Origin: an uncultured Gammaproteobacteria bacterium
GTDB lineage: Bacteria > Patescibacteriota > Microgenomatia > UBA12405 > CAZGPK01
Assembly (NCBI GenBank): GCA_964527115.1
Contig: CAZGPK010000001.1
Coordinates: 43,729 to 97,719 of the forward strand
Length of the DNA stretch: 53,991 bases
Direction of reading: 5' to 3'
Positions within the stretch are counted from its first letter, which is position 1. Each line of letters opens with the position of its first letter. This document shows positions 23,012-40,613 of this stretch, one piece after another. The translations under genes and the position numbers were made by a program. Under the pieces are notes generated by a model that saw only the letters and a list, made by a program, of their open reading frames with translations, did not search any database and was not told the DNA's origin.

Positions 23012-23653
23012 ATGGATTTAAAAGATATATATAGAAATAGGTTTGTGAATAAAGAGGAAAGAGTCAAAATGTGGAAGATTTTAGTTGAAGATTTTTTTCA
23101 GAAGTATATGGGTAAAGGTGATGTAGTTCTTGATATCCCTTGTGGTTATTGTGAATTTATTAATAATGTTAAATGTAAAAAGAAAATTGCCATAGATTTA
23201 AATGGAGATGGTAAAAAATATACTGGAGTTGGGGTGGAGTTTTATAAATCTAGTTCAGTAAAACTTCCATTGAGAGATAGGTCTATTGATAAAATATTTG
23301 TCAGTAATTTTTTTGAACATTTAAACAGAGATGATATACAAAAGACGATTAGTGAATTTAAAAGGGTTTTAGCAGAAGGTGGCCAGGTGTTGGTTTTGCA
23401 ACCTAATATTAGGTTTTGCCAGAAAGACTATTGGATGTTTTTTGACCATATTACACCAATTGATGACAGGGCTTTGGATGAGGTTTTTAGTGCTAATGGC
23501 TTTAAGTTAAAGGAGAAGATATTAAGGTTTTTGCCATATACTACTAAAAGTAAGTTTCCAGTAAATCAAATTTTAATAAGGCTGTACTTAAAATTATCTT
23601 TTTTTTGGAAAGTTTTTGGTAAACAAAGTTTTATGATTTTTGAGAAAATATGA
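23012..23653 (+). CDS. Class I SAM-dependent methyltransferase
   Basis: VLDIPCGYCEF, SNFFEHL, L..GG......PN, FFDH. Confidence 0.88.
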   Translation: MDLKDIYRNRFVNKEERVKMWKILVEDFFQKYMGKGDVVLDIPCGYCEFINNVKCKKKIAIDLNGDGKKYTGVGVEFYKSSSVKLPLRDRSIDKIFVSNFFEHLNRDDIQKTISEFKRVLAEGGQVLVLQPNIRFCQKDYWMFFDHITPIDDRALDEVFSANGFKLKEKILRFLPYTTKSKFPVNQILIRLYLKLSFFWKVFGKQSFMIFEKI

Positions 23654-24978
23654 AATTTAGAAAGATATTTATAAGTTTGAGCCAATGGCTTAGAAACCAT
23701 GAATTATTTGTTATATTCACAATATTTTATTTAGTGTTCGGGAGAACTTTTTTTGATTTTATTTCAGACCATGCAGTAAATATATTAAAGGGAGATCAGT
23801 GGAATGTTGTGGATTTAGTCACTAATTCTTTTAATCTAAGCGACTTGCTTTATCAGCACAATGAACACAGGATTGGTACTGGGCTTTTCGTTATGAAGTT
23901 TTTGGCGTCACTGTCAAGTTGGAATATCAGATATGAAACTTATTTTACAGGTATTTTAATATTAGCTAGTTCTGTTTTTGCTTTATTGTTAAAGAAAAAA
24001 CTTTTTAAGAAGTTAGATATTTTTGATATTTTTATCCCTTATATTTTTTTGAATCTTTATCAGTGGGAAAATTTACTTTGGGGGTTTCAGATAGCCTTTG
24101 TTTTACCTTTGTTCTTTTTGTTTATAAGTTTGTACCTGTTTACCTTTAGGGCTTCTTTTTTAAGAAACATATTGGTAAGCATCATTGTTTTATTTTCTGC
24201 ATATTCGTCTTTCCATGGTTTGTTTTTGGGTGGTATTGTCTTACTTTGTGGATTAAAAGCTTTGGCTTGGGAAGGTAAGAAAGGTAAGAAACATCTTTTA
24301 TCTCTTGTTTTGCCGGCTTTATTTGTTTTATCCACCTATTTTATAGGTTATGAATTTAGAACGAAAAATCTAATGACTGGAATTGAGGAGGTTCATTTGT
24401 TGTCTGTTTTGCAATACTTGTGTTTTCAAATAAATAATTATGTTGGGAATCAATCTTATGGTACATTATTTTATTTTTTGCCAGTGTTGTTTCTTTTTCT
24501 CTTTTTAGTTGTACTTTATAAAACAATAAAAGTAAAAGGTGAAACTAAATATTTTATTATTTTGTCGGTGTTTTTGTATTCATTTTTATTTATGTTATTT
24601 ACAGTGACGGGGAGGCTACATTCGGGTGTTCACCAGGCTATGGCTTCAAGATATGTTACACACATGACTCCTTTATTTTTTGGCTCCTATTTAGTGCTTA
24701 GGATTCTGTGGAGAAAAAAAAGGAAAAATTTATTGTTTATCCTTATCTTTTTGTTTGCTTGTTTTTCTGCTGCTAATAATCATTTGAACTACAATCATGC
24801 TGAGGCAAGACGAAAAAAGTTAGTTGAGTGGAAAGATTGTTTTTTAGAAAATGGAATAGTTTCGGACTGCAACGAGAATACTAAGTACTTTATTTATCCT
24901 ATCTTTGGAGATGGTTTAGTGCAATCTAAAATGAAAATACTGGAAGAAAAAAATCTAAATTTGTTTAACGGGAAATAA
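23650..24978 (+). CDS. Polytopic membrane protein, probable GT-C glycosyltransferase
   Basis: First external loop GDQW...QHNEHR; Q.ENL.WGFQ; RY near the last TM; about 11 TM segments; last gene of a GT2/flippase operon. Confidence 0.65.
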   Translation: MKFRKIFISLSQWLRNHELFVIFTIFYLVFGRTFFDFISDHAVNILKGDQWNVVDLVTNSFNLSDLLYQHNEHRIGTGLFVMKFLASLSSWNIRYETYFTGILILASSVFALLLKKKLFKKLDIFDIFIPYIFLNLYQWENLLWGFQIAFVLPLFFLFISLYLFTFRASFLRNILVSIIVLFSAYSSFHGLFLGGIVLLCGLKALAWEGKKGKKHLLSLVLPALFVLSTYFIGYEFRTKNLMTGIEEVHLLSVLQYLCFQINNYVGNQSYGTLFYFLPVLFLFLFLVVLYKTIKVKGETKYFIILSVFLYSFLFMLFTVTGRLHSGVHQAMASRYVTHMTPLFFGSYLVLRILWRKKRKNLLFILIFLFACFSAANNHLNYNHAEARRKKLVEWKDCFLENGIVSDCNENTKYFIYPIFGDGLVQSKMKILEEKNLNLFNGK

Positions 24979-24994
24979 TTTTTTACACTGAATT

Positions 24995-26275
24995 TTATTC
25001 GTTTTTTTTGTTTTTTAATAAAAGATCTTTTTTGAGAAGTTTTGTGCAAGTTTCTTTGGGGAGTTTTAATGACCATGTTGGATTACTTTTTCCGTTAATC
25101 TGTATCGGAATAACATAGTTTTCATAGTTAGCACATTTTTTTGCGTGATATATCCAGTTTAAATCACTATGTTTTCTGTTCCACACAGGAAAAGCATTTA
25201 TTATGGCGGCTAGTATTAATATGTTCGGGAATATTTTTATTAATTTGGTCTTAGTATTGGTAGATAACTGGATTAAAAGCCAATATAAAATTATATATGT
25301 AAAGAAAAAATAACGGGGTCCTGCGAACTGTGGGTGTATTCGTATTGGATCAATTCTAATAACCGATGAAGCAATAGTTCCCAATAATAGGTAGATTATA
25401 CTTAACCTTAAAAAGTTGGGTTTTGTTTTTAAAAAAAATAAAATAATCATTATTAAAACTATCATACCCAGAAACCACAGAACATATGGATTCCCGATAA
25501 CAAAATTCCCGATGACGAAATTTCCCAAAAATACGGGGGTTACGTTTTTGACTATGGAATTAATCTCTGGTATTTTTCCTGGCAGTGTTTGTGAAACAAA
25601 ATAAAGCTGGATTGTTGTTATTGATAGACTGATTAAGGCTATAATTTTTTCGATAAGAATATTTTTAAAGTGTACTATCCTGTAAATAAGTAGCGGGGAA
25701 ATCAGAATTATAATCGGAGAGGATAAGCCTCCAATTAATAAAAATAATATTCGTAGTAAGGGGAAGCTATATTTCTCATCCCATAGTACAAGTAAAAAAA
25801 GAAGGATTGATGACCACCAAAATGAATAAAGTGGAATTCCAAAAACCTCGGGATTAGTAGGTATAAAAAATATCAAGAAAGCACATAGTGTTTTTCGTTT
25901 TAAATATGTTGGACATAAAGCAACGCACATTACAACAAATATTATAAATAACCAGCAAATAATAGTGCTAATTATGTGGTATTGTGTGAAAGAAATTGAA
26001 AGTGAAACTGCTGATATTATTCTAGAAATAACTATTAAATATCCATTTATTGGTTCGAAAATTGAGGTAAGTCCCTTGGTTGCAAGACCAAAAATAACCG
26101 TACCGTCTTCATTCCATACCTGTGGACATACGAGCTGTGACCATCGCCTTGAAGTTAAAAGTAAAAAAAATGTGAGAGCTAAAAGGGGATTTGTTATTTT
26201 TTTCTCGTTAGCCCAGTTTATGAGTTTTAAGGTTTTGTTTCTTGAGTATTTTAAAAACGATGTCAAGTAAACCAT
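24995..26275 (-). CDS. Polytopic membrane protein, probable GT-C (GtrII-like) glycosyltransferase
   Basis: RR......Q.WNEDG loop, P..GYL....R, GPRYFF; about 11 TM segments; very AT-rich. Confidence 0.65.
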   Translation of the reverse strand: MVYLTSFLKYSRNKTLKLINWANEKKITNPLLALTFFLLLTSRRWSQLVCPQVWNEDGTVIFGLATKGLTSIFEPINGYLIVISRIISAVSLSISFTQYHIISTIICWLFIIFVVMCVALCPTYLKRKTLCAFLIFFIPTNPEVFGIPLYSFWWSSILLFLLVLWDEKYSFPLLRILFLLIGGLSSPIIILISPLLIYRIVHFKNILIEKIIALISLSITTIQLYFVSQTLPGKIPEINSIVKNVTPVFLGNFVIGNFVIGNPYVLWFLGMIVLIMIILFFLKTKPNFLRLSIIYLLLGTIASSVIRIDPIRIHPQFAGPRYFFFTYIILYWLLIQLSTNTKTKLIKIFPNILILAAIINAFPVWNRKHSDLNWIYHAKKCANYENYVIPIQINGKSNPTWSLKLPKETCTKLLKKDLLLKNKKNE

Positions 26276-26358: not shown

Positions 26359-27372
26359 TTATTTTTTTAGAATAGCAACAAGCTCCTTGTCGTTTTCTAT
26401 AAAGTGAACTATTTTGATAGCTTGGTTTAGATAACTTTGTAGGGAAGTGGTGAATTTTAGAAATGTGTGTTCATCCCAAACATGGTAATGAATATTGTAA
26501 TTAATTTTGACTAAATACTTTAGTATTTCAATAATTTTCTTTTTGTTTTTTAATTTTTCAACGAATTTTATCCAATCTGTTAAATGTTCTTTTTGTGAGT
26601 GTTTGGACTCTTCTAGGTCATCTTTTTTAAGATGGTCAAAAGTGGTAAGTTTTCTTTTTATATTGAAGGTATGGTTTTTATTTGGGACGGTGTAATAGAG
26701 ATAGCCTCCTTTTTTAATTTTTTTTAGATGATTTCTGATAGTTCCTAAAGGGTTTTGACAATGTTCGAGCATGTGGTTACAGATAATAAAATCAAGAGAA
26801 TTGTTTTTGATAGTATTTAATTTTTCACCATCATCAACAATGTCAACTTTAGTGAGTTTTTTACCTTTTAATTCAGGATATGTTTTTTTAAGAATAGTAG
26901 TTTCTTTAATGTCCACATATTTTACTTTTACATTGGATTTCACCCAGAGTGGGTTATGGAGAGCTCCAATTTTAATACCTTCACCGTTTATGTAAAGGCT
27001 ACTTGAAAAATGATGAACGTCTTTTTGGTTTAAAAATGCTGAGTTGTCGTCTGCTAGGAATTTAATACTCTTGGGGACTTTGATATCAAATACGTGATAT
27101 CCGTTGCCAATACCTGCTTTTAAAAGATCATTCCTGAATGTGTTTGCCTTGGTTCTAAATAATAGTTTCTTTGAATCATAAATTTGAAGGTCTACTGTTG
27201 TGTTAGGATTATCTTTGTTGAAAATCCAACCTGTAATTTTTTGATTACTGAAGGTGTCAAAATGGAATTTGTATTTTCGAAGAGGATCTTTCTTTTTTTG
27301 AGCAGAAAGTCTTTTTGAACTAGTTAGTTTGGGGAAAGCAAGTTTGGTTGCGGCGAAAGGATTTTTTTTCAA
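26359..27372 (-). CDS. Methyltransferase-domain protein with an N-terminal beta-rich accessory domain
   Basis: N-terminal GW......P.......A..FR.DL..AGIG.G.H.F; C-terminal G..IGALHNP, DF.I.NH.LEH..NP, H.H.W. Confidence 0.75.
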   Translation of the reverse strand: MKKNPFAATKLAFPKLTSSKRLSAQKKKDPLRKYKFHFDTFSNQKITGWIFNKDNPNTTVDLQIYDSKKLLFRTKANTFRNDLLKAGIGNGYHVFDIKVPKSIKFLADDNSAFLNQKDVHHFSSSLYINGEGIKIGALHNPLWVKSNVKVKYVDIKETTILKKTYPELKGKKLTKVDIVDDGEKLNTIKNNSLDFIICNHMLEHCQNPLGTIRNHLKKIKKGGYLYYTVPNKNHTFNIKRKLTTFDHLKKDDLEESKHSQKEHLTDWIKFVEKLKNKKKIIEILKYLVKINYNIHYHVWDEHTFLKFTTSLQSYLNQAIKIVHFIENDKELVAILKK

Positions 27373-27398: not shown

Positions 27399-28072
27399 TT
27401 AAAACTCGGCTCCGTTTTGGATTGGCGTTATGGAAATTTCCTCGACTCCATTTATTTTTTGGAGTGTTTTGACCAGGGAATCAATATCGGTCCCTTTTTT
27501 TAAAGACACATTGGCACTGATTTCAAGGCTTTCGCCTTTTTTGTCAGATTGGATATTGATTGTCTCTTTCGTTTTTAGATATGGTTGAAGAGTTTTTTCG
27601 ATGTCTTGGGAACGAGTTTTTTTGTTTGAAGATTATAGATTAGCAGATAGTCAAAATTGTTAGTGTTCCCAAAATTAGTGAATTTTAATATGTAGGCAAG
27701 AATGCAGACAATGATAGTAGAGGTGATGGCAATGCTGGTTTCTCCTGCTCCAACAGCAAGACCTACCGCTAGAATCCAGAAAATGTAAACCATGTCCCTG
27801 GTGTCTTTGATAGGCGTTCTGAAACGAGTAACCGAAAAAGCACCAAAGACACCAATGGCTCGAGCAACATTATTATTGACGACGTTAATGATAAGAGCGA
27901 CAAGAGGAAGAAGCATGACGAGGCTGGTAACAAAACTTTGAGAATAAGAAACAGAGCGGTGAGTTTTTTTATAAGTGTAGGCAATAACAAAGGCAAGAAT
28001 CGTACCGATACTAAGATAGTAAAAAGTTGATAGGGGGTCTGAGAATGTTTTAATGAGGTCTTTAGTGTTCAT
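27399..28072 (-). pseudogene. DUF4956 membrane protein interrupted by a frameshift in an A7 run (pseudogene, phase-variable gene, recoded gene or assembly error)
   Basis: 165-aa ORF with RAIGVFGAFSV.RFRT..KD.RD..Y.F.....G...G. A -1 shift at ACA AAA AAA C (T run 27617-27623 on +) continues open as TRSQDIEK...GVEEISITPIQNGAEF to TAA at 27399, giving a 224-aa protein. Confidence 0.85.
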
Positions 28073-28079
28073 TTTTTGT

Positions 28080-28808
28080 TTATTCTAAATTATAAAGTTT
28101 GCTCACAGATTGGCAGTATTTGGAAAATGAGCCTCTTTTTAAATTGTTCATTTTAATTATATAGGAAAACCAGGGGGGAATAACACCATTAAATTTTACC
28201 TCCATTACTGCAAAATTGTGAAGAACATTTTTTGAATATATTTTATTAGGCTGGAAACTATCGACTTTGGCGGCTTTGATGTCATAGTCAAAGGTTATGC
28301 GAAAGTTTTTGTTGAATTTAGAAAAATAGGGTTTTCTTTTGTAGTGAACCAGAATACGAGGCTTAAGCCTAAGGGTTTGATATGAGTGGAAAATTTCAGA
28401 AAAAAGCGGAGGGTTTGTGTACCGAAGTTTGTTCCAGGTCGAAAGGGAAAAATTTGCTAAATGGTTTTGGTTTACCAATAAGCGATCTTTGATAATTATT
28501 GAATCTGATTTTCTTTTTATCTCAAAAAAAATAGGGGAATTTGGATTTTCGCAGTGTTCTTGATAGTAGCGAATGCGGAATTTTTTGCGATTTTTGAGAC
28601 CGTCTAGTTTTTCTTGATAGGAAATAAAATTGGGACTGTCAAGGTAGATACTGTTGACAAAATAGTGGTCTTTGTCGCCTGTGTAGGGGTCAGGTTTTAC
28701 AAAATTTGAGATGGAGGCCAAAATACTGTCTGCTAGGTTGGCTGGCATAACATATTTTAATTCAAAACGTCTAAAACTTAGTTTTGGCTTTTCCTTGTTA
28801 ATTTTCAT
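28080..28808 (-). CDS. VTC (polyphosphate polymerase, CYTH/TTM tunnel-fold) domain protein
   Basis: RFELKY, SIYLD, EK..G...R.K.RIR.Y, FEIKRK, Y.R..Y, RITFD, MEVKF, FSKY. Confidence 0.9.
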   Translation of the reverse strand: MKINKEKPKLSFRRFELKYVMPANLADSILASISNFVKPDPYTGDKDHYFVNSIYLDSPNFISYQEKLDGLKNRKKFRIRYYQEHCENPNSPIFFEIKRKSDSIIIKDRLLVNQNHLANFSLSTWNKLRYTNPPLFSEIFHSYQTLRLKPRILVHYKRKPYFSKFNKNFRITFDYDIKAAKVDSFQPNKIYSKNVLHNFAVMEVKFNGVIPPWFSYIIKMNNLKRGSFSKYCQSVSKLYNLE

Positions 28809-28814
28809 AAAGAG

Positions 28815-31800
28815 TTAATTTACCATAATTTTTGAATCATCCGTTTCCATTTTTTCTCCGGTGAAGGTGTTTTGATAATCAATATCTTTTTTATTGTTTG
28901 TGAATATTGTTTTAAAAACATCTGCGTAACCACCAGTGAAAAATTCCTTTTTTTGATAGGCGTTAATGCCAATGTTGTTGTTTTTGATAACATTATCTAG
29001 GATAGTTGCCTTAGAAGAGTCTTTAACTTCAATGCCAATATTACAACTATCTAGAATGTTATTGACAACTTTTGGGTAACTGTTTTCACCGATACTGATA
29101 CATTTATCTCCTGAGTTTTGAATGTCGTTTGCCTCAATTTGGACGCTGGAGCCGGAAATATCAATGGAGTCATTGCCATTGCCTTTAAAAGTGTTATTTT
29201 TGACAATTCCATCAACAAAATCAAGATCGATAGCATCAGCGCTATTGTTTTCAAAGTAGCAATTGCTGATTTCACTGGTTGAATATTTTAAATTTATTCC
29301 GTCATCTGATTGTGAATCATTAAAGGTGGAATTTTTGATAACGATATCAGCATGATAGGCAGAAAATTGGCCAGACAAATATAGATTGTTAACAAAAGTT
29401 TCTGATCCTCCACTAACTTTAACAAAATCTAAAACAGAACCGCTGGCTTCTTTTCCTATTATGGCAAAGACAGCAAAAGGGGCTTTGTCTGCTGATTGGA
29501 TTGTAATTGGTTTGTCTTTGGTCCCCAGTGCTTTAACGGGAGAATAGGATATTAATGAGGTGTTTTTGGCAAGGGATATTTTTACTCCAGGCTTAATGTT
29601 AACCGTGTATCCAGCCGGTATGATCAGGTTCTCGGATATGTGATATTCCCCTTCCAGGAGAACGAGCTCTTGGTTTGAAGTGTCTTTAATGAAAATATCG
29701 TTTTCAAATACTTCTTGCCAAGGGGTTTCTTGAGCAAGTTGGTCTGTGATTTTTACAAGTAAAGGGTCTTTGAGTTGATAGTTAGGATTTGTTTTGTATT
29801 TGGTATACATTGCGGGGAAGAAAAGATATTTACCTTGTGTATTGTCAAAATATATTAAATAATGAGGATATTCTTCTCCGGATTCGGCAAGATAGGAAAG
29901 ATATGAATTTAAATTATTGTCATCAAACATTTCTTTTGAAAAATTTTCATTTTCAAGAGAATCAAAAAGTTTTTTTAAAGTTTCGTGATCATTGGAGTTC
30001 AAGTGTGGGTCAGAGGATATTTTTTCCCAACTATCAAAGGAGGAGGTGTCATAGTTATTAGTTTTATAAATATCGGTGTCAAAGGTTAGCTTTTGGGTTT
30101 CATAAAAAGCTTTGTCTTCCTGGCTTTCGACAAGATGATAGTGATCGATGTAGAAATCATTTATATATAGATTGATATCAAGACTTACTGAGGGTGTTGG
30201 TAAATTGTATTTTTGTGAAATATCGATTGACCCTAGATATTTGTTGAATAAACTGTCTGGAATTAATAGGAATTTGTTCCTGTTTAAAAGATTTTTATCT
30301 GTGAAGGATAGTTTGAAGATATTTTGGAATGGGTCTTCTTTTTTAAATTTGACATTTTTGATTTTCACACCAGCAAATGTTACGCTCCCCTCATCTTTCC
30401 TGTCTTTGTTTTCAAGATAATGGTATGGATTTATGATAGGAAGGTTGATTGAGAATGTATCGAGCTTGTTATTGGATTGTGCTAGATTTAACTCATTGTT
30501 TGAATTGGAATCTTGTGGGCGAGAAAAATCCATAAAACAGTCTTTTAAGACCAGGCTATTTGTTTTTTTAATCGGTATGTCTTTACCCGTGAGTATGTTT
30601 TTTATTTTGATATCGAGCGGAAGTGCAAGGTTGATAGGAATTCTAAAGGTTGTTGGGCAGTTTTTTGCATATGGATATCCACCCTCCGCCTTTTCCCTAT
30701 CTGAAAAAATCTCCGAGGAATTATAGGGATTGGGGTGATAAACAAAATCGTTGTAAACTTCAATTTTAGGGATATCTTGGGAGTTTTTGTAAATACTTTC
30801 AATCGTTGCGTTGGCAGTGCCGGTGTAAGTCAGATACAGGAAATTATCTTGGATGTAATATTCAATGTTTCCTTCAGAGAGTTTGTTTTTGAGAAAAGTG
30901 TATCTGCTGTTTATTGTTTCCTTTAGTTCTTCTATTTTTGATAGGACATCTGCAGTAGATTGGTAGGCTCGATTTCCATTAGGATTCCCAAAAACACCAC
31001 CGAGATAGAGATCATATTTCAAATTATTTTCAAGTAGTAATTTATCTTTTTCAATGGCTGTAAACAAAGATTTTTTTAAAGAATTATCATTTATTGTTCC
31101 CCAGAGTTTTTGAGTAAAATCACGATTGAAATAAATATTTTTCCTTAATTTCTCAGTAAGAATAAACTTCATTTCTTCTACACCATCACCGGAGTCATAG
31201 TTCATTACCCATCCAACCGGATCCCAAACAATAGGGTAAAATTTACCGTTTTCTTTTAAGCCAAGAAACCAGTTATGAACACTATCAAAGTGAGCATTTT
31301 GTATGAGAGCGACATAAGTGTAAAAATCTAACAAATATTGGTAGTCAAAAAAAGAAGTTATTTGTTCAGCGCTTTTGTTGTTTATGCTTTCAAGAAAGGG
31401 GGTTAGGGTTGATTTGGAAGCGTAACCTCCGGAAATATTCCACTTATAGGGGTCAATAAAAAGTTCTGGACCGGATTTGCGAGATTCTCCAATATTTTCT
31501 CCCTGAAAGATAGCCCAAAAGTCAAAATTGTTTTGGGTGATGTATTGGCTATCAATCTCTTCACTTTCTTCAAATATTCCTTGATATTCGTTATTTATAA
31601 ATAAGCCGGTGTATTTCGTTTTGGGGGCGTATAGTTTGAGTTGGTTAGCAAGATCAAAGGCAATTTTTGTTGCTAGCAAATTGGCTGGTTTAGGATTTAT
31701 GAGATTGATTTTGCTTCCATCTTGCTTTTTGATGGTGATGGATTTTTTATCATAACCCCAATGGTAGAAATTATCTCCTCGATATTTAACCTCAACGGGT

Positions 31801-32168
31801 GTTTTTTGGTTATTAACCAAAATTTCGGCATTGAAATAATCCTTGCCGCTTTTTGGTAGATCCGAATTCATAATATTAAGATCGTAGGGCTTGACTAATA
31901 ACTCGAGGTAATTAAATCCGCTGTTTTCTAGAGATTTAATTATGCTTTTTTTACTAGTAAAAAAAGATTTTACTTTTTTTGTTGTTTTGACAAGATTTCT
32001 TTTTATGTAGGTTTTTGTATTGTTTATCTGGAAGTCATGCCAACTGGTATCTAAAGCGAAATGTTTTTCGTTAGAAATAACTTCCTGGAAAGAAAGTGCT
32101 GATAAAGATAATAAAAAGAAGGAGATGGCAATGCTGGCAACAATAGATATTTCTTTTATTTTTTTCAT
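28815..32168 (-). CDS. Secreted/anchored CotH-family kinase with a second degenerate CotH-like domain and a C-terminal right-handed beta-helix
   Basis: N-terminal TM; KYRG....H...KKS..I, F.N..Y.G.F...E.ID, D..HN, FYPIVWD; C-terminal DDG.N.K, DAID.D, GDK.IS.GE parallel beta-helix repeats. Confidence 0.85.
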   Translation of the reverse strand: MKKIKEISIVASIAISFFLLSLSALSFQEVISNEKHFALDTSWHDFQINNTKTYIKRNLVKTTKKVKSFFTSKKSIIKSLENSGFNYLELLVKPYDLNIMNSDLPKSGKDYFNAEILVNNQKTPVEVKYRGDNFYHWGYDKKSITIKKQDGSKINLINPKPANLLATKIAFDLANQLKLYAPKTKYTGLFINNEYQGIFEESEEIDSQYITQNNFDFWAIFQGENIGESRKSGPELFIDPYKWNISGGYASKSTLTPFLESINNKSAEQITSFFDYQYLLDFYTYVALIQNAHFDSVHNWFLGLKENGKFYPIVWDPVGWVMNYDSGDGVEEMKFILTEKLRKNIYFNRDFTQKLWGTINDNSLKKSLFTAIEKDKLLLENNLKYDLYLGGVFGNPNGNRAYQSTADVLSKIEELKETINSRYTFLKNKLSEGNIEYYIQDNFLYLTYTGTANATIESIYKNSQDIPKIEVYNDFVYHPNPYNSSEIFSDREKAEGGYPYAKNCPTTFRIPINLALPLDIKIKNILTGKDIPIKKTNSLVLKDCFMDFSRPQDSNSNNELNLAQSNNKLDTFSINLPIINPYHYLENKDRKDEGSVTFAGVKIKNVKFKKEDPFQNIFKLSFTDKNLLNRNKFLLIPDSLFNKYLGSIDISQKYNLPTPSVSLDINLYINDFYIDHYHLVESQEDKAFYETQKLTFDTDIYKTNNYDTSSFDSWEKISSDPHLNSNDHETLKKLFDSLENENFSKEMFDDNNLNSYLSYLAESGEEYPHYLIYFDNTQGKYLFFPAMYTKYKTNPNYQLKDPLLVKITDQLAQETPWQEVFENDIFIKDTSNQELVLLEGEYHISENLIIPAGYTVNIKPGVKISLAKNTSLISYSPVKALGTKDKPITIQSADKAPFAVFAIIGKEASGSVLDFVKVSGGSETFVNNLYLSGQFSAYHADIVIKNSTFNDSQSDDGINLKYSTSEISNCYFENNSADAIDLDFVDGIVKNNTFKGNGNDSIDISGSSVQIEANDIQNSGDKCISIGENSYPKVVNNILDSCNIGIEVKDSSKATILDNVIKNNNIGINAYQKKEFFTGGYADVFKTIFTNNKKDIDYQNTFTGEKMETDDSKIMVN

Positions 32169-33199
32169 AATTCAAAATCAATTTTTTCCTGAAGAGAAAG
32201 AAGGAGTAGTTCTATTTGAGGGTCGATTTTGGGAGAATCATGCTTGGCTTCAATTAAAACGTAGTGATATTTTGTTAAATCTAGGGGGGTACTAAGTTTG
32301 ATGTAAAGATAAGGATCAGGGCCGATGCTGTGAAAAATATTTTCTTTTTCTGCCACCATGTCTTTTGAGGTTGTCCACTTACTAAAGTCGTATATTTTTT
32401 CATTTTCAGCCTGTCCCCTTTTTTCTTGGGAATTAACGAAGTTGATAGAAGTAAGAATTAGCATTCCTTGGGGAGGATCAAGCCTAATCATGTTTGCCGT
32501 TTTTGAATTTTTTATGGGTATTAGATATTGATTTTTGTCTGTTTTGTCTTTGCAGCTTTGTTGTTCTGAAGTAAAGAAATCTGTTCCCCAATAAAAACAA
32601 AATGGTTCCACTTCTATTATTCTTTTTAGATACGGTTGAATTATGTTTTTAACGGAATAGAAGTCTCCTTTTTGAATGAGTAAGTTTCCCAGTTGAATAA
32701 TGGTTTCAATATTGTCAGCCTCTTGCGAAAGTACTTGATAATAACTTTCAATCGCTTCGTTTTCCTTCCCTTGTTTTTCTTGGGCCAGACCCAATTTAAA
32801 CCAACCAAGAGTTTGGCTTGGATTGATATTTATGTATTCTTTTGAAATTTTTTCAAGTTTTCCCCACTCTTGATTTTTGGTGTATATGTTTTGAGCCATA
32901 TCCAAAGCCTGGTTTTTTTGAGTTCGTATTGGTGACCACCATTGATTAACAGGAATAATTTCAGTATATTTTTGGATGAAAAAAATTTTTAGATCTGAAT
33001 CTTTAATTTTATTTATGCGGTTTAGTAATTCGCTCCAAAATATATTTTTTTTAGTCCAATAATATGATTCGATAAAATTTGAAGTTGTGAGATCTATATT
33101 TCCCCACTGAGTAATTTTAAAATCAGTAAAATACCAGAATAAAAAAGAAAAATTAATGATGATAGATAACGCTAATAAAAGGCGTTTTTTAAAAAACAT
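32165..33199 (-). CDS. Membrane-anchored TPR protein with C-terminal beta-sandwich-like domain
   Basis: N-terminal TM; P.....W..LG.....G....A...Y...L TPR pattern; C-terminal IRLDP and DPYL motifs; 4-nt overlap with the CotH gene. Confidence 0.75.
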   Translation of the reverse strand: MFFKKRLLLALSIIINFSFLFWYFTDFKITQWGNIDLTTSNFIESYYWTKKNIFWSELLNRINKIKDSDLKIFFIQKYTEIIPVNQWWSPIRTQKNQALDMAQNIYTKNQEWGKLEKISKEYININPSQTLGWFKLGLAQEKQGKENEAIESYYQVLSQEADNIETIIQLGNLLIQKGDFYSVKNIIQPYLKRIIEVEPFCFYWGTDFFTSEQQSCKDKTDKNQYLIPIKNSKTANMIRLDPPQGMLILTSINFVNSQEKRGQAENEKIYDFSKWTTSKDMVAEKENIFHSIGPDPYLYIKLSTPLDLTKYHYVLIEAKHDSPKIDPQIELLLLSLQEKIDFEL

Positions 33200-33207
33200 T
33201 TTTATAA

Positions 33208-33849
33208 TTAAATTTGTCCTATTGCAAAAATATGCATATGTAAAGGGCCAGGCTTGATCCAGGGGGCAAATTCAGCATAAGTAAAAATCTTAAGCTTGAT
33301 GGTGAATTTTTCTAGTGTATTTTCCAATATTTTTGGGGTAAAAAAGTTTAGGTGTGATTTTTCCAACATGTGCCACGGGACAACTTGGTATTTTGACATG
33401 ATTGGAATTACATCAATATTAGGAACAGAAATTAAAATGTTTTTTTTGGCAACCCTAAAGGCTTCTTTTAATGCCTCGTGTGGATTAGGTAAATGTTCAA
33501 GAACCTCTATCATGAGCACGGTATCAAATGATTTACTTTTAAACTTGAGATTTTGAGCATCCATGAGTTTAACCTTCAGTTTATTCTTTTGACATTTTTT
33601 TACATTTTCCTCGTTGTTTTCTATACCAGTACAGTTATGTCCCATGCTATTTAATCTTTTTAGATAAGTACCAATACCACAGCCAATATCTAATATTTTA
33701 TGTCCACTGTTGGTAGTAATATAGCCGAGCGTTTCTTCAGAGACAACAGGGCTTGGTGGACCGCTACCGTATATGTTGTTTCTATGGGGAATTAGTTTTT
33801 TTCTCTCAAAGTCTCTGAGTGCCTGATAGTAGGGTAGATTTGTATCCAT
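33208..33849 (-). CDS. Class I SAM-dependent methyltransferase
   Basis: ILDIGCGIG, FDTV..IEVLEHL, SVPN. Confidence 0.9.
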   Translation of the reverse strand: MDTNLPYYQALRDFERKKLIPHRNNIYGSGPPSPVVSEETLGYITTNSGHKILDIGCGIGTYLKRLNSMGHNCTGIENNEENVKKCQKNKLKVKLMDAQNLKFKSKSFDTVLMIEVLEHLPNPHEALKEAFRVAKKNILISVPNIDVIPIMSKYQVVPWHMLEKSHLNFFTPKILENTLEKFTIKLKIFTYAEFAPWIKPGPLHMHIFAIGQI

Positions 33850-33851
33850 CT

Positions 33852-36740
33852 TTAAATATTGAGGTTAATTTGTTCATTTTTTAAAGATAAATTGGGGTTA
33901 AAAAAGGGATCGTTTTGAAGTGTTTCTCCCCATCTTTGGTGCATGGTTTGAATCTCTCTGGCAAACTCCTCAAGGTTTCGAGAACCTTTAGAGGGGTCCC
34001 CGACTGAGATTGATTCGTGGTGATAAAGGTTGGCAAAAGGGGTGTAAACGTTTCGATATCCTTTTTTGAGGAGACGTAAACAAAAATCAACATCATTAAA
34101 GGCAATTCTAAATTTTTCGTCCATGCCCCCAACTTCTAAATATTTTTTTCTTGAGATTAGGAGACAGGCGGCAGTTACGGCTGAGTAATTTCTGATGGTA
34201 TCCTTTGAATTGAGAACAGGTAATCCTGCTGAAAGATCAGGAGACATCTTTTGTGTGTGGCCGGCAATTCCTCTTTTAATGTCTCCTCCTCTGATGCCCA
34301 GGACGACACCGGCGTGTTGTATTAGTTCGTTGGGATAAAGAAGTTTAGCGCCGACACAGGCAATTTCTTTGTTTTGAGCGTATTCCAACATAGCCTGGAT
34401 CCAGTCGGAATTGATAATTTCTGTATCGTTGTTGAGAAGCAAAACATAATCACTTTTTGATTTTTTAACGGCAAAATTGTTAACTGCAGCAAAGTTAAAG
34501 ATTTTTTTCCAGTGTAAAAATCTAATACGCGGATCTCCTTTAATTTTTTTATAGTACTTAAGGGTTTCTTTTTCAGTGCTTTGGGTGTCAACTATGGTGA
34601 TGTTGTAGTTTTTATAACTGGTTTTTTTAAGAATTGAAGAAATTGTCCTTTTAAGATAGAAAAGTTTATCTTTAGTGGGAATAATAATGTCGATAGTAGG
34701 ATTGCCTTTAATTTTATATTTGACTCTAAAGGTTCCAGGAATAATTCCATTGGAAATACTGCCCTTTTGCCCTTTTGTTTTGAGAATACTTTTTAGTGCT
34801 TTTTGAGCGGCGGTGTTAGCGTAATTTTTAACTTCGTAAACTGAGGCGGTAGATTTTGGTACTTTTCTCCAAGAGTAGAGGATATCGGGAACATGGACTA
34901 TTTTTTGAGCGATTTGGGTGGTTCTTAAGAAAAGGTCATAGTCTTGTGAGCCTTCAAAGCCTACTCTAAATCCTCCAACTTTGGTTATTAGGGTTTTTTT
35001 AATTACTGAAAGGTGACAAAGATAATTTACGGACATAAACATCTCTGGTGACCAATCGGGCTTAAAAAATGGGTCTACCCTTCTTCCGTCTAGTTCTAGT
35101 TTGTCTTCATCGGAATAGATAAAATCAATGTTTTTATCTTCATTTAAAAGTTTGGCTATTTCATAAAGGGCGTGTGGTGTTAATTCATCGTCGTGATCCA
35201 TAAGAGCAACATATTCTCCTGTGGCTAACTTTAAGGCTGAGTTAGAAGCTCGGGATATATGACCATTTTGTGTTCGATAAACTACTTTTATTCTCTGGTC
35301 TTTGTTTTTATATTTCTCCAGTACTTGTTTGACGTGGGGTTTAGTAGAGGCGTCATCAGCAAGACAGAGCTCCCAGTTGTCATAGGTTTGGTTTAAAACT
35401 GATTTTATACAGGCTTCTAACCATTTTTGATCGGTGTTGTAGACAGGAGTAATAATGCTGATTTTCGGACGGTATTTGAATTTTTTTTGTTTTTTTCTTT
35501 GGTGGACTAATTTTTGTTTGGTAGGAATATTTTGTTTTAACCAGATTTGATATTGCTCATTTATATTTGTTATTTTTTGTTCTGTCGTTTGGCTACCGAT
35601 TAATTTTCCCCTTAATCCTCGTGGACCCTTTGTTATGAGAATTTTGGTTCCTTTCAATATTAATGAGGGTTTTCGTCTAATCTTTGTGTATAGTTGCCAA
35701 ACCTTAAATGTTTTAGCAGAGGTAACATTGTCTAATATTTTTTGGAGGTTTTGCGCATGCAGATCTATGGTATCTATTCTTTTACTATTTTCTCTGTTCA
35801 TTTTTCTTTGTTCTTTAACTATTAATTTTAAACTATCTATTTTTTTTGTCTGTTTGTTAATTTGGGCACAAATTTCTTCTCCGGTTTGCCCCAGTTTTTG
35901 CTTGGCAGACTTTAACTCTTTCCTTGTTTCGGTTAATTGTTCTCTTTTGGTTGATAGGATTTCCTTCTTGGTTTTTAGGTTGTAGTTAAGAGAAGTTAAT
36001 TTTTCTTGGTGAATCTTAGTGATGTTGGTAATGTGATTTTGTTGATCAAAAGTTTGTTTTTTTAGTTGTTTGTTTTCGTGTAAGAGTGGGTAATAGTTTT
36101 GCCATATTTGTTTAAAATTATTTTTTTTTAAAAGAGGTGAATTGTTTTTGATTATTATTCCCAGACCATGGGAATGGGAAAATTCTATTGTTTGGTAGGT
36201 TTTTTTGAGTTCTGCCCAAAGAAGATGGACTCCAAAGTTACTTTTTTTTTCGTGGGTGTCATGTAGGAAAATTAGACCATCTGATTTGACTTTTTTGGAC
36301 CAATTGTCAAAGTCATGTTTGACAGCTTTATACGTATGAAAACCGTCAATGTGAAGAATGTCGATGGAATTATCTTTGAAATTTTTTTTTGTTTCGTCAA
36401 ATGTTTTTCTAAGTAACTTGATGTTTTGATTTGGGTAAAGTTTATTTTTAATTTCTTTTACATGCTTGTACATTTGGGAATCATAAGCTCCAGTGTGTTT
36501 GTCCCCTTTCCAAGTGTCGATTGCAAAAAGTTTTGTTTTTAATTTTGCGTCTTTTACTGCTTGGCAAAAAGAAAAAAAGGAACCGCCCTTGTGAGTGCCA
36601 AGTTCAACTATTGTTTGTGGTTTTAGGTTTCTGACAAGGTCATAGGAAAAGTATCGGTGACCAATCCAAGCTGATTCAAGATCACCATATTCTTTTTCAT
36701 AACTATATGTGGGTTGGTAGTATTTCCAGATATTTTTCAT
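33852..36740 (-). CDS. Multidomain methyltransferase / coiled coil / two GT2 domains (WsaE-like polymerase-terminator)
   Basis: VELGTHKG.S, DTW.GD, HIDG.HTY..V..D, G....HD (Methyltransf_24-like); about 120-aa coiled coil; GT2a SIITPVYN..D.S..DHDD; GT2b IIIPTKD..LLNND.E..AFNDVD.CL. Confidence 0.9.
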   Translation of the reverse strand: MKNIWKYYQPTYSYEKEYGDLESAWIGHRYFSYDLVRNLKPQTIVELGTHKGGSFFSFCQAVKDAKLKTKLFAIDTWKGDKHTGAYDSQMYKHVKEIKNKLYPNQNIKLLRKTFDETKKNFKDNSIDILHIDGFHTYKAVKHDFDNWSKKVKSDGLIFLHDTHEKKSNFGVHLLWAELKKTYQTIEFSHSHGLGIIIKNNSPLLKKNNFKQIWQNYYPLLHENKQLKKQTFDQQNHITNITKIHQEKLTSLNYNLKTKKEILSTKREQLTETRKELKSAKQKLGQTGEEICAQINKQTKKIDSLKLIVKEQRKMNRENSKRIDTIDLHAQNLQKILDNVTSAKTFKVWQLYTKIRRKPSLILKGTKILITKGPRGLRGKLIGSQTTEQKITNINEQYQIWLKQNIPTKQKLVHQRKKQKKFKYRPKISIITPVYNTDQKWLEACIKSVLNQTYDNWELCLADDASTKPHVKQVLEKYKNKDQRIKVVYRTQNGHISRASNSALKLATGEYVALMDHDDELTPHALYEIAKLLNEDKNIDFIYSDEDKLELDGRRVDPFFKPDWSPEMFMSVNYLCHLSVIKKTLITKVGGFRVGFEGSQDYDLFLRTTQIAQKIVHVPDILYSWRKVPKSTASVYEVKNYANTAAQKALKSILKTKGQKGSISNGIIPGTFRVKYKIKGNPTIDIIIPTKDKLFYLKRTISSILKKTSYKNYNITIVDTQSTEKETLKYYKKIKGDPRIRFLHWKKIFNFAAVNNFAVKKSKSDYVLLLNNDTEIINSDWIQAMLEYAQNKEIACVGAKLLYPNELIQHAGVVLGIRGGDIKRGIAGHTQKMSPDLSAGLPVLNSKDTIRNYSAVTAACLLISRKKYLEVGGMDEKFRIAFNDVDFCLRLLKKGYRNVYTPFANLYHHESISVGDPSKGSRNLEEFAREIQTMHQRWGETLQNDPFFNPNLSLKNEQINLNI

Positions 36741-38357: not shown

Positions 38358-39092
38358 TTAGTTACCTTGTCTGTATTTCCCAACAACCTTGCTTGCTTGG
38401 TCGTATGAAACTAGTGTGGAGCGGTTTATATATAGTGCTTTGGCGCAAAAATTTTTGATTGAATCGAGGTTGTGGGAAACATAAATGATGGTTACTCCTT
38501 GTTTTTTGAATTCTTCCATTTTTGCAAAGCACTTTTGTTGGAAGGCAGTGTCCCCTACTGCTAGGATTTCATCAATTAGGAGGATCTCTGGTTTGACGTG
38601 GATGGCAACAGAGAAGCCTAGGCGCATGTACATGCCTGACGAGTAGTGTTTGACGGGTTGGTCAATAAAGTCCCAGAGCTCGGCAAAATCAACTATTTCC
38701 TTAAAGTATTTATCTATTTGGCTTCTTCTCAGTCCTAGAATTGCCCCATTTAGATAGACGTTTTCTCTTCCGGTTAATTCTGGATGAAAGCCAGCACCTA
38801 ATTCGATAAGTGGTGATACTTTACCCTTGACAGTTACCTGGCCCTCTGTGGGGCTCATGACGCCAGCAATTAGCTTTAAGATGGTGCTTTTACCGGAGCC
38901 ATTGGGACCGATGATTCCCAGGGTCTCTCCTTTATTTACTTTGAAGGAAATGTCTTTTAGGGCCCAGAATTCTTGACGGGTTTCTTTTTTTTGTAAGAAA
39001 GCAGGGAGAAGCTCTTTGAAAGTCTTCTGGTTTAGGAGAGTAAATTTCTTTGAGACTTTCTTAAATTCAATGACTGGTTGGTTTTTGTTCAT
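38358..39092 (-). CDS. wzt: Polysaccharide ABC exporter ATP-binding subunit without a C-terminal CBM
   Basis: FWALKDISF, GPNGSGKST, YSSGM..RL.F, ILLIDE.LAVGD..FQ.K, VSH; protein ends at 244 aa. Confidence 0.93.
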   Translation of the reverse strand: MNKNQPVIEFKKVSKKFTLLNQKTFKELLPAFLQKKETRQEFWALKDISFKVNKGETLGIIGPNGSGKSTILKLIAGVMSPTEGQVTVKGKVSPLIELGAGFHPELTGRENVYLNGAILGLRRSQIDKYFKEIVDFAELWDFIDQPVKHYSSGMYMRLGFSVAIHVKPEILLIDEILAVGDTAFQQKCFAKMEEFKKQGVTIIYVSHNLDSIKNFCAKALYINRSTLVSYDQASKVVGKYRQGN

Positions 39093-39252: not shown

Positions 39253-39307
39253 ATCACGATGAGAGGACTACCAAAGGGCAATCTTATTTCCCGCGGGAAT
39301 GCCTCTC
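39253..39307 (-). other. Structured element spanning the NYN stop codon
   Basis: GAGAGG/CCTCTC stem (39261-66 with 39302-07) encloses the perfect 12-bp palindrome TTCCCGCGGGAA (39288-99); ATCGTGAT tail on the minus strand. Confidence 0.5.
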
Positions 39308-39814
39308 TTTTTCTTTTTTAACTTCTAGTTTGTTCTTGGTAGCAGTGAGTGTGGCAATGTATTTGGCATAGTTTCTTAAAAGGGAAGAGTATTTTTGATT
39401 GGGGGCGATAATTTTGCAGAGTTTGTTTTTCTTTTCAAGATATTCAATAAGGCAATGGAAATCACCATCGCCAGAGACAATGATTGCCTGGGAATAATAA
39501 GGGTATTGAATCATAGAATGGAGAACCAATTCGGCATCAACATTTCCTTTAATGACAGATTTCCCTTTTTTGGAGATTTGCAAGACATGTTTGAAAATTA
39601 GGATATAGCCAACTTCCTGAAGATGTTTGTAGAGATTGCTATTGCCTTCGATATAGCCAATAAAAAGATAGGCCTTTTTTACATGGTATTTGTTCCTTAA
39701 ATAATTTCTGAATTTGCCATAGTTTAATTTCCAGCCAAGGGATTGAACGCCAAGATTTAGGTTTTGGCTATCAATGAAGGCGTAGATTTTTGAATTGTTT
39801 TGGAGACTTTTCAT
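39284..39814 (-). CDS. NYN (LabA/DUF88, PIN-like) domain protein
   Basis: YAFIDSQN, KGNVD..L, IIVSGDGDF..L, S.LL motifs. ATG 39814 sits 1 nt past the wzm stop (alternative start 39832). Confidence 0.9.
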   Translation of the reverse strand: MKSLQNNSKIYAFIDSQNLNLGVQSLGWKLNYGKFRNYLRNKYHVKKAYLFIGYIEGNSNLYKHLQEVGYILIFKHVLQISKKGKSVIKGNVDAELVLHSMIQYPYYSQAIIVSGDGDFHCLIEYLEKKNKLCKIIAPNQKYSSLLRNYAKYIATLTATKNKLEVKKEKERHSRGK

Positions 39815-39815
39815 G

Positions 39816-40613
39816 TTAGACAGCATCGGCAAAGCGACCTTCCCATTTTTTAAAGAGGTAAAAGCCTGAAAAGAGGGTGATTAGGGAGACAATCAGGGCA
39901 ATGAGGAGGTTTAAGAGATTGGGTGCTTCGCCTCCCAGGATAGCGGCCCGGTAGGCATTAACTAAAACAGCCATGGGGTTTAGCTGAAAGACAAAGCGGA
40001 AACGGGCGGGAATGATGTCAATTGGGTAGATGATGGGAGTAAGGTACATCCAGAGCATGAGAACAAGACCTAAGAGGTATTGGATATCGCGGTAGAAGAG
40101 GTTGGCGGCGGCCATAAAGAAGGAGAGGCCCAGAGTAAAGAATTGCTGGATAAGGAAAATGGGGAAGAACCAGAGCAGATTAAAGTTTACTGGAATTTTA
40201 AAGACAAGCATGAAAACAACAAGAATGAGGGAGGCAAAGAGAAAATCGACTATTTTAGATAAAAGAGTGGCAATGGGAAAGATTGAGCGAGGGAAATAGA
40301 CCTTGGTGATAAGGGAGGCATTGCCAACCAGAGAGTTGGCGGAGGAGGAGACAGCGTTGGCAAAGAGAGACCAAGGGAGAAGGCCGACGTAGAGAAAGAT
40401 GATGTAGGGAATACGAGGATTGGCTCCAGTGGGAATGCGCATAATAGTGGAGAAGACAAAGGTCATGACAAGAATTTGAAAGAAGGGATTAAGAATAACC
40501 CAGAAATAGCCCAAAATTGACTGTTTGTAGCGGGCTTTAATCTCACGGGCCACCATTTGCCAAAGGAGTTCTCGGTGAAAAACAAGCTGTTTTATTTCTT
40601 CTTTAAGAAGCAC
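39816..40613 (-). CDS. wzm: Polysaccharide ABC exporter permease
   Basis: RELL.....RE.KARYKQS.LG..W..L.P, L..KVYFPR..FP, YRD, TPIIYP, NP....V..YR. Confidence 0.93.
   Translation of the reverse strand: MLLKEEIKQLVFHRELLWQMVAREIKARYKQSILGYFWVILNPFFQILVMTFVFSTIMRIPTGANPRIPYIIFLYVGLLPWSLFANAVSSSANSLVGNASLITKVYFPRSIFPIATLLSKIVDFLFASLILVVFMLVFKIPVNFNLLWFFPIFLIQQFFTLGLSFFMAAANLFYRDIQYLLGLVLMLWMYLTPIIYPIDIIPARFRFVFQLNPMAVLVNAYRAAILGGEAPNLLNLLIALIVSLITLFSGFYLFKKWEGRFADAV

Follow-up and report, generated by a model that had tools for sequence, protein, structure and literature searches.

In the yeast VTC complex (Vtc4 with Vtc3 or Vtc2 and Vtc1; structures 3g3q, 7ytj and 8i6v), Vtc4 polymerises polyphosphate from ATP and threads the product through a transmembrane channel. 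Kinase-fold enzymes are also known outside the cytosol, among them Fam20C and the glycan kinases Fam20B and POMK, some of which act on sugars. In bacteria, the phosphorylation of an envelope molecule by LpxT takes place outside the cytoplasm and draws on undecaprenyl pyrophosphate as donor, and WbdD of Escherichia coli O9a phosphorylates and methylates the glycan end in an ABC-transporter pathway, as a cytoplasmic enzyme that uses ATP; both enzymes lie outside the CotH and VTC families. A cotH gene, a polyphosphate polymerase gene and a DUF4956 gene are accessory genes of Gram-positive pel operons (Whitfield 2020, PMC7112168). Here we analyze a copy of this trio, accompanied by a TPR gene, in a stretch of 53,991 nucleotides, referred to as the window (contig CAZGPK010000001.1, positions 43,729 to 97,719), from a genome of the candidate phyla radiation (CPR). 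The window cassette is a copy of a widespread CotH/VTC/DUF4956 set, and it is situated in a Wzm/Wzt-type glycan operon. The association itself is in print, without an assigned function; new are the non-pel Wzm/Wzt locus in a CPR genome, a CotH protein fused to a beta-helix, the TPR partner, and a variable poly-A tract in the membrane gene.

In Streptococcus intermedius (SIR_1594, SIR_1593 and SIR_1592), the trio was modelled and each gene deleted (mBio 2025, PMC12345266), and three matching genes are present in NELoc-2 of C. perfringens (PMC11677781). The authors of the mBio study report that the trio was not found outside pel loci (PMC12345266), which is contradicted by the non-pel loci described here. 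As in the pel cassette, a secreted CotH protein, a cytoplasmic VTC protein and a protein with four to five helices and an ACT domain are encoded next to each other, in the same orientation and beside exopolysaccharide genes. The two differ in that the window has no pel genes: the Pel families gave no Pfam match among the open reading frames (ORFs) scanned, at 17 to 41 kb of the window, where a contiguous pelDEA(DA)FG arrangement was likewise missing. The window genes instead belong to a Wzm/Wzt cluster in a 0.72-Mb genome, a TPR gene is added, and the CotH protein carries a beta-helix and a degenerate CotH-like region, whereas pel CotH has FN3.

The TPR, CotH, VTC and DUF4956 genes are all on the minus strand, and the ORF list gives gaps of -4, 6 and 7 nt between them, as described in an earlier note on this DNA, which had regarded the four genes as tightly coupled. 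Their positions, and those of the neighboring genes, are collected in Table 1.

Table 1. Cassette genes, their domains and neighboring genes, in window positions
Feature	Positions	Strand	Basis
Membrane-anchored TPR protein, 344 residues	32165..33199	-	weak Pfam TPR at residues 120-188
Exported multidomain CotH protein, 1117 residues	28815..32168	-	Pfam, AlphaFold2 (AF2), Foldseek
CotH N-terminal signal anchor, residues 7-25	32094..32150	-	Kyte-Doolittle 2.34, preceded by MKKIKE
CotH kinase domain, residues ~86-431, with D295, N299, D316	30876..31913	-	profile against 5jd9
CotH beta-sandwich, residues ~435-545	30534..30866	-	AF2 strands at 435-535, predicted local distance difference test (pLDDT) 83-94
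Possible degenerate second CotH-like domain, residues ~600-790	29799..30371	-	clade hidden Markov model (HMM), weak
CotH right-handed parallel beta-helix, residues ~825-1117	28818..29696	-	pLDDT 79-98, Foldseek, Pfam
Stand-alone cytoplasmic VTC-domain enzyme, 242 residues	28080..28808	-	Pfam VTC, family profile, residues
DUF4956 membrane protein, five helices and C-terminal ACT-like domain	27399..28072	-	Pfam, AF2
A7 homopolymer (T7 on plus strand) at the frameshift	27617..27623	-	frame reading, sister assembly
Methyltransferase, upstream in the run	33208..33849	-	Pfam; gap 8 nt
Methyltransferase domain, coiled coil and two GT2 domains, 962 residues	33852..36740	-	Pfam; gap 2 nt
Methyltransferase, downstream in the run	26359..27372	-	Pfam
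Polytopic membrane protein, no family match, downstream	24995..26275	-	Pfam, hydropathy
Wzt-like ABC ATPase	38358..39092	-	Pfam ABC_tran
NYN-domain gene	39284..39832	-	Pfam NYN
Wzm-like ABC-2 permease	39816..40613	-	Pfam ABC2_membrane

Linkage of VTC, DUF4956 and CotH

We analyzed the gene neighborhoods of 81 distinct loci carrying the nearest relatives of the window VTC, collected with a 12-sequence VTC alignment. Linkage was counted with HMMs on all ORFs, since antisense ORFs mislead gene calling in high-GC loci. DUF4956 is found downstream of VTC, on the same strand and within 200 nt, in 77 of the 81 loci, and two of the four loci where it is lacking are contig ends. CotH is encoded within 5 kb of VTC in 37 of the 81. 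A gene for a HlyD-type membrane-fusion protein (Pfam HlyD_3, HlyD_D23), here called the adaptor, follows DUF4956 in 47 loci, all of them from double-membraned phyla (Opitutae, other Verrucomicrobiota, Balneolales, Planctomycetota and others); CotH comes after the adaptor in 14 of these, and many Opitutae loci consist of VTC, DUF4956 and adaptor with no CotH within 5 kb. The 23 loci that have CotH and no adaptor are all CPR-like or unclassified, and here CotH mostly lies immediately upstream of VTC.

Two phyla were sampled at 301 genomes each, the window's own, evenly drawn, and that of a Horticoccus genome of the Opitutae (G361). VTC matches occur in 18 of the 301 genomes of the window's phylum, and DUF4956 is present in 15 of these 18 compared with 0/283 VTC-negative genomes (Fisher p 1e-22). 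Pfam CotH was detected in 12 genomes, every one of them among the 15 that have both VTC and DUF4956, and in 0/283 VTC-negative genomes (p 2e-17); as for the three exceptions, two have a divergent CotH-like gene beside VTC, and in the third the sequence is cut 950 nt after DUF4956. In the second phylum, DUF4956 is present in 47/48 VTC-positive vs 1/253 VTC-negative genomes (Fisher p 8e-53), with copy numbers equal to those of VTC, and CotH in 47/48 vs 20/253 (Fisher p 9e-38). All three families are found in the control genomes of B. thetaiotaomicron, C. glutamicum and M. acetivorans, and that of B. subtilis has CotH alone, without VTC or DUF4956. The co-occurrence of the three families, which the earlier note had mentioned for other bacteria, is therefore far beyond chance in two phyla.

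The genes are arranged as CotH-VTC-DUF, VTC-DUF-CotH or DUF-CotH-VTC, and since the linkage is kept while the order varies, it is under selection rather than merely inherited. The dependence is one-sided: VTC and DUF4956 practically never occur in a genome without CotH, but CotH can stand alone, which fits the prediction for a supplier and its client.

The VTC family is distributed over CPR, Verrucomicrobiota, Bacteroidota, Actinobacteria, Firmicutes and at least one methanogen, practically always in the company of DUF4956 and nearly always of CotH. Within the window's order, VTC is above the family cut-off in 2/61 genomes, and the other of the two (G029, locus L005) keeps the TPR-CotH-VTC-DUF4956 block, there with a giant GT2 protein upstream of it and a fusion of an ABC-ATPase with a methyltransferase also alongside. 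L005, L006, L021, L023 and L026 are CPR-type cassettes with public titles of "Gammaproteobacteria", "Pseudomonadales" or "archaeon"; these titles look like binning or naming errors, G029 being in the same order as the window. The Horticoccus genome (contigs C1 and C23) has the VTC-DUF4956 pair three times and CotH in five or six copies, two of which are within ~5 kb of a VTC-DUF4956 pair, so that the module can multiply within one genome. No VTC-DUF4956 fusion was found among the loci examined, an apparent DUF4956-adaptor fusion in L078 was traced to a run of N in the scaffold, and long "DUF4956" ORFs were start-codon over-extensions.

Neither the window nor any of the CPR loci examined has the adaptor, as would be expected where an outer membrane is lacking. 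In the Opitutae loci nothing is conserved beyond the adaptor, and the neighborhood holds no other conserved transporter gene; a TolC-like gene past the adaptor was looked for and was unconfirmed in the sample, and the ORFs at that position encode FtsK, enolase, histidine kinases and GST or have no Pfam match. The presence of an adaptor after DUF4956 in diderm bacteria, with no other conserved transporter, points to export.

Residues, folds and topology of the cassette proteins

The window VTC protein matches the Pfam VTC profile from position 2 to 235 of 235 (E 1.3e-42). It is a single domain without SPX according to Pfam, and hydropathy analysis gives no hydrophobic segment. The family of stand-alone VTC proteins comprises 16,050 clusters at 50% identity (matches at E 1e-3), and the best 150 of these 16,050 members are all of stand-alone-domain size, 229-314 residues. 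The full motif set that the earlier note had read from the sequence (ExK, RxRxY, EIK, RITFD, EVK and SKY) is indeed there, with R14, E16, K18, R78, R80, Y82, E96, K98, R170, T172, D174, E203, K205, K230 and Y231 invariant among 42 homologues; K107, Y156 and R158 are likewise present and invariant in this set.

A search of the PDB with the single VTC sequence gave no match, and a family profile was required: the profile of the 42 bacterial homologues hits Vtc4 in its catalytic domain (3g3q) with E 1.3e-16, a better match than that to the inactive Vtc2/Vtc3. Invariant bacterial residues map to R196, Y201 and R296 of Vtc4 and, as window/Vtc4 pairs, K18/K200, R78/R264, R80/R266, K98/K281, K107/K294, Y156/Y359, R158/R361, R170/R373, E203/E426, K205/K428 and K230/K458. 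As judged by this alignment, the window protein keeps all catalytic and tunnel residues of Vtc4, including the equivalent of K458. In Vtc4, K458 is the catalytic lysine, and mutating its counterpart in AtTTM3 barely affects hydrolysis (Martinez 2015); in hydrolytic tunnel enzymes, moreover, an acidic patch takes the place of basic residues of Vtc4 (Martinez 2015). The bacterial family departs from Vtc4 at E16, R74 and K76. Its strand-1 motif reads RxExK, with Arg at the position of Vtc4 R196 and the invariant Glu, E16, at that of T198.

The catalytic tunnel domain has its invariant residues in common with that of the yeast VTC complex, and there are also differences. The window VTC is a separate, soluble protein without SPX and has Glu at the T198 position, and the yeast complex contains channel-forming three-helix subunits of Vtc1 type where the partner is here a five-helix/ACT protein of MgtC-like character, without a fold match to them. 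A cytoplasmic polymerase that is genetically tied to a membrane protein makes coupling of synthesis to translocation the natural model.

That membrane protein, DUF4956 (Pfam E 3e-16), has four strongly hydrophobic helices and one amphipathic helix by hydropathy, in agreement with the four to five transmembrane helices assigned to it earlier. The ORF that starts the gene, 27575..28072, encodes 165 residues, and the ACT-like C-terminus, which extends to 27399, is reached only in the -1 frame past the A7 tract. Two independent assemblies from one study carry the locus; one of them (L085) is identical to the window, with A7, and the other (L086) has A8, which restores an intact DUF4956 of 224 residues. 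The eighth A is the sole difference within the shared 6.7 kb. An error in assembly, heterogeneity of the population (phase variation), slippage during transcription or -1 ribosomal frameshifting could each lie behind the A7/A8 difference. Read in the zero frame, A7 makes up an A_AAA_AAA heptamer, and -1 ribosomal frameshifting on it would yield the same full-length protein. A poly-A tract is absent at the corresponding site of the nearest relatives, L005 and L006.

Modelled by AF2 from the A8 allele (pLDDT 85), the protein has five helices followed by a beta-alpha-beta-beta-alpha-beta domain, and the positive-inside rule places the N-terminus outside and the ACT-like domain in the cytoplasm. 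The invariant residues Y34, T37, H38, S42-S44, R83, F84, R85, D90 and D93 would, in this model, all be located on the predicted cytoplasmic face. Foldseek matched the model to ACT-like domains only, including the C-domain of MgtC (2lqj; target-normalised template modelling (TM) score 0.58). Against Pfam MgtC (PF02308) the protein scores 20-21 bits, below the cut-off of 31.4, and sub-threshold MgtC matches occur in 14/45 DUF4956 family members (E up to 0.01); on these sequence and model comparisons we regard DUF4956 as probably MgtC-like, distantly. The MgtC proteins of Salmonella and Mycobacterium share with it the order of domains, with an ACT-like domain in the cytoplasm after the membrane domain, and a link to phosphate/ATP physiology. 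They differ in that the Pfam match is below cut-off, and in that MgtC regulates F1Fo ATPase and PhoR and has no VTC enzyme as its partner.

The CotH protein has a Pfam CotH match (E 7.6e-20) and a Beta_helix/NosD match at residues 936-1074. Its AF2 model has a mean pLDDT of 75.6 and is confident in the kinase domain, the beta-sandwich and the beta-helix. The N-terminal membrane or signal segment noticed earlier is supported by hydropathy, which identifies a hydrophobic segment after basic residues, and this anchor predicts an N-in, C-out topology. Since an N-terminal hydrophobic segment is present in 30/32 VTC-linked CotH proteins, the proposal that CotH acts outside the cytoplasm agrees with the predicted topology of both the window protein and its linked homologues.

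The whole of B. cereus CotH (5jd9) is covered by a profile built from 29 VTC-linked CotH domains (E 6e-47), and Foldseek aligns the kinase domain to the same structure with a TM score of 0.74 (E 1e-12); the single sequence reached only E 1.5e-3 in the PDB, and again the family profile was required. The FDSVHN (D295, N299) and VWD (D316) motifs align with FDGFVHN and PWD of B. cereus, and the aligned Asp positions correspond to B. subtilis D228 (catalytic) and D251 (metal-binding), mutation of either of which inactivates the kinase. N299 and D316 are conserved in at least 90% of the VTC-linked CotH family. The Bacillus proteins (5jd9/5jda) thus have the fold and the equivalents of Asp, Asn and metal-binding Asp in common with the window protein, but act in the mother cell, where ATP is present, lack a signal anchor, and occur without VTC and DUF4956; the window protein is predicted to be extracytoplasmic, is fused to a polysaccharide-enzyme fold, and has an Asp-to-Asn spacing of 4 rather than 5. 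Because the protein is predicted to be extracellular and the genome is too small to suggest sporulation, a substrate other than spore-coat proteins is expected.

The beta-helix matches 6kfn, 7o7a, 2pyh, 4nk6 and 1dbg in Foldseek and resembles PL6 alginate lyases, the mannuronan epimerases AlgG/AlgE4 and chondroitinase B, which ties the CotH protein to a polysaccharide-handling fold. Between the beta-sandwich and the beta-helix, a clade-specific CotH HMM matches the region of residues ~600-790 at model positions 55-242 with 19.9 bits, and HY...PAM there replaces HN...WD, so that the active-site Asn and Asp are lost. This region, which is conserved as such in 27 related loci, may be a second CotH-like domain, perhaps a pseudokinase; the assignment is weak because AF2 confidence is low there, and Pfam at a loose threshold gave no match in this middle region.

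The fourth gene ends within CotH, its stop overlapping the CotH start by 4 nt. The TPR protein has one N-terminal hydrophobic segment (residues 7-25, after MFFKKR), and its C-terminus has no Pfam match at a loose threshold. Homologues in the matching position were found in L005 and L006 only, and a general role for it as the scaffold that the earlier note suggested is ruled out by this confinement to three loci. The TPR protein is a lineage-specific accessory outside the core cassette.

A possible phosphate route to the cell surface

A chain in which VTC makes polyphosphate, the product is exported with DUF4956, and CotH uses it on a glycan or glycoprotein is the best-supported reading, and we tentatively put it forward as one that is possible and yet open to considerable doubt. 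Docked on DUF4956, the MgtC-like five-helix/ACT protein, the soluble Vtc4-like tunnel enzyme would use ATP to build a phosphate polymer on the cytoplasmic side of the membrane, and the pair would pass a phosphoanhydride product to the outer face. There, the product would serve the anchored CotH, bound to a polysaccharide through its beta-helix, for the phosphorylation or some other phospho-modification of a glycan or glycoprotein made by the locus, and the TPR protein would be a subclade-specific helper. The synthesis step is suggested by the residue conservation, the export step by the obligate membrane partner and the diderm adaptor, and the role of the product as donor by the one-sided co-occurrence and by the location of CotH outside the cell, where no ATP exists. 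For Fam20 and POMK, ATP is imported into the Golgi; the puzzle of how a kinase works where there is no ATP source is one that the cassette may solve, by allowing phosphate chemistry at the cell surface. Gene content and spacing, conserved residues, predicted topology and folds, and linkage across genomes are what the analysis shows; synthesis and export of polyphosphate, its role as donor and the nature of the acceptor are inferred.

The host genome (719,575 bases in 17 contigs, 89% complete) has no PPK1, PPK2 or PPX above cut-off at this completeness, which indicates that VTC has no ordinary economy of cytoplasmic polyphosphate to serve. We consider it distinctly unlikely that, as a general rule in prokaryotes, a PPK-independent Vtc4-like synthase and DUF4956 export polyphosphate and exported CotH kinases use the polymer instead of ATP on surface glycans or proteins. 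If this did hold, VTC would be the sole polyphosphate enzyme of this energy-poor CPR cell, possibly with the poly-A tract as an on/off switch.

Several observations weigh against the proposed chain. E16 amounts to half of the hydrolase ExExK motif, if AtTTM3 is mapped by motif position. The window DUF4956 gene is frameshifted, the DUF4956 model matches no channel, no membrane fold and no yeast VTC chain in Foldseek, and its helices lack conserved basic residues; the suggestion in the earlier note that DUF4956 is a translocation pore of VTC type is not supported. MgtC proteins, the only relatives of DUF4956, are known as regulators and not as transporters. The catalytic-Asp column varies across the VTC-linked CotH proteins, and to our knowledge no kinase of the CotH/Fam20 fold uses polyphosphate. 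In S. intermedius, deletion of the VTC gene had no detectable phenotype, loss of DUF4956 raised Pel and loss of CotH lowered it (PMC12345266), and deletion of either of the latter two cut aggregation in sputum medium (PMC12345266); these knockouts do not fit a simple linear pathway. We found no paper that assays a bacterial VTC-domain protein, and none that proposes the export of polyphosphate.

Another reading is a cytoplasmic regulatory module without export, in which DUF4956, as a membrane regulator of MgtC type with an ACT sensor domain, anchors VTC, local polyphosphate synthesis or triphosphate hydrolysis by VTC tunes glycan assembly and export or the phosphate balance, and CotH works independently outside. 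The distant likeness of DUF4956 to MgtC, the absence of pore-like features from its model, the retention of E16 at a hydrolase-type position and the S. intermedius DUF4956 knockout, which makes more Pel and looks regulatory, all agree with such a module. It leaves unexplained, however, why a membrane-fusion protein follows DUF4956 in 47 diderm loci, and why, from phylum to phylum and in glycan systems as different as pel in Firmicutes and Wzm/Wzt, the pair goes along with an exported kinase. On balance we regard it as unlikely.

A rather unlikely explanation, which draws on the same evidence for synthesis and export as the proposed chain, is that polyphosphate is itself the end product, a polyanion of the surface or matrix, and that CotH tethers or trims it or is only co-regulated and uses another phosphate donor. 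The many Opitutae loci of VTC, DUF4956 and adaptor without CotH nearby are consistent with this, as is the lack, as far as we know, of a polyphosphate-using CotH-fold kinase. Nevertheless, CotH is encoded somewhere in 47/48 VTC-positive genomes of the second phylum, and in CPR it is nearly always adjacent, which would be odd were it dispensable.

A third possibility is that VTC and DUF4956 charge a different phosphoryl carrier in the membrane, for example by converting a polyprenyl phosphate to the di- or triphosphate, and that the flipped carrier then serves CotH. Bacterial extracytoplasmic phosphorylation, where known, draws on lipid-linked donors, as in the E. coli periplasm, where undecaprenyl pyrophosphate serves LpxT; the departures of bacterial VTC from Vtc4 at E16, R74 and K76 and the polyprenol-dependent glycan pathway of the locus would be compatible with such a substrate. 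Nothing directly favors a lipid, though, the residues steering the polyphosphate chain through the tunnel exit of Vtc4 are conserved, and the diderm adaptor suits a soluble polymer better, so that we consider this very unlikely. Chance adjacency, hitch-hiking in a horizontally acquired island or local decay through the DUF4956 frameshift might be read from the low GC of the island, the rarity of VTC in the order (2/61) and the frameshifted allele, but chance adjacency is refuted by the co-occurrence statistics in two phyla (Fisher p 2e-17 to 8e-53), and the retention of linkage under varying gene order, an intact A8 allele in the same population and the conservation of all other residues make the explanation as a whole barely credible.

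Were the proposed chain to hold, prokaryotes would have a second way of making polyphosphate, one resembling that of eukaryotes, and the cassette would represent a first export route for an inorganic polymer. It would provide a phosphoryl donor for extracytoplasmic kinases, and with it an account of how kinase-fold enzymes work outside the bacterial cell, and would imply a new phospho-modification of surface glycans, including the Pel biofilm matrix of pathogens. The window shows the cassette beyond pel loci, kept in a 0.72-Mb genome without detected PPK1, PPK2 or PPX; it also shows that CotH can be fused to a polysaccharide-enzyme fold, and that the membrane partner can carry a variable poly-A tract.

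The surrounding glycan locus and host genome

Genomes in the sample of the window's phylum measure 0.6-1.3 Mb; this size and that of the host genome are in the range typical of CPR/Patescibacteria. The nearest related loci come from groundwater CPR bins. NCBIfam added no annotation beyond Pfam, and scans for promoters and terminators gave no signal above shuffled controls.

The packed run of genes extends past the four cassette genes, both upstream and downstream. In addition to the genes of Table 1, the locus contains GT2 genes, methyltransferases, an RmlA-like nucleotidyltransferase and epimerase/dehydratases (Pfam). The glycan setting named in the earlier note is therefore well founded, and the presence of Wzm and Wzt identifies the locus as an ABC-transporter-type glycan pathway. 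The gene between Wzm and Wzt, encoding an NYN-domain protein (a predicted RNase), is in an unusual place.

In the large protein upstream of the cassette (33852..36740), an N-terminal methyltransferase domain is combined with a long region resembling a coiled coil (residues ~220-400) and with two GT2 domains, a layout that recalls the chain-terminating, chain-length-measuring enzymes of WbdD/WbbB type in ABC-transporter O-antigen pathways. Its counterpart in G029 has a sulfotransferase-like N-terminus in place of the methyltransferase. At the edge of the glycan operon, two convergent genes at 23650-24978 (+) and 24995-26275 (-) encode polytopic membrane proteins of 442 and 426 residues; neither matches a Pfam family, even at a loose threshold, and they may be unclassified GT-C-like or polymerase-type enzymes.

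The glycan island has a GC content of 0.30-0.35, compared with 0.44-0.47 in its flanks. The plus strand of the window contains 14236 G and 7339 C, a GC skew of +0.32 that rises to +0.42 in 6-kb blocks, and this asymmetry is independent of gene orientation; the absolute skew is 0.18-0.42 in 14/17 contigs of the host genome. In the low-GC island (24-36 kb) the skew is weaker, +0.14 to +0.19, which fits recent acquisition.

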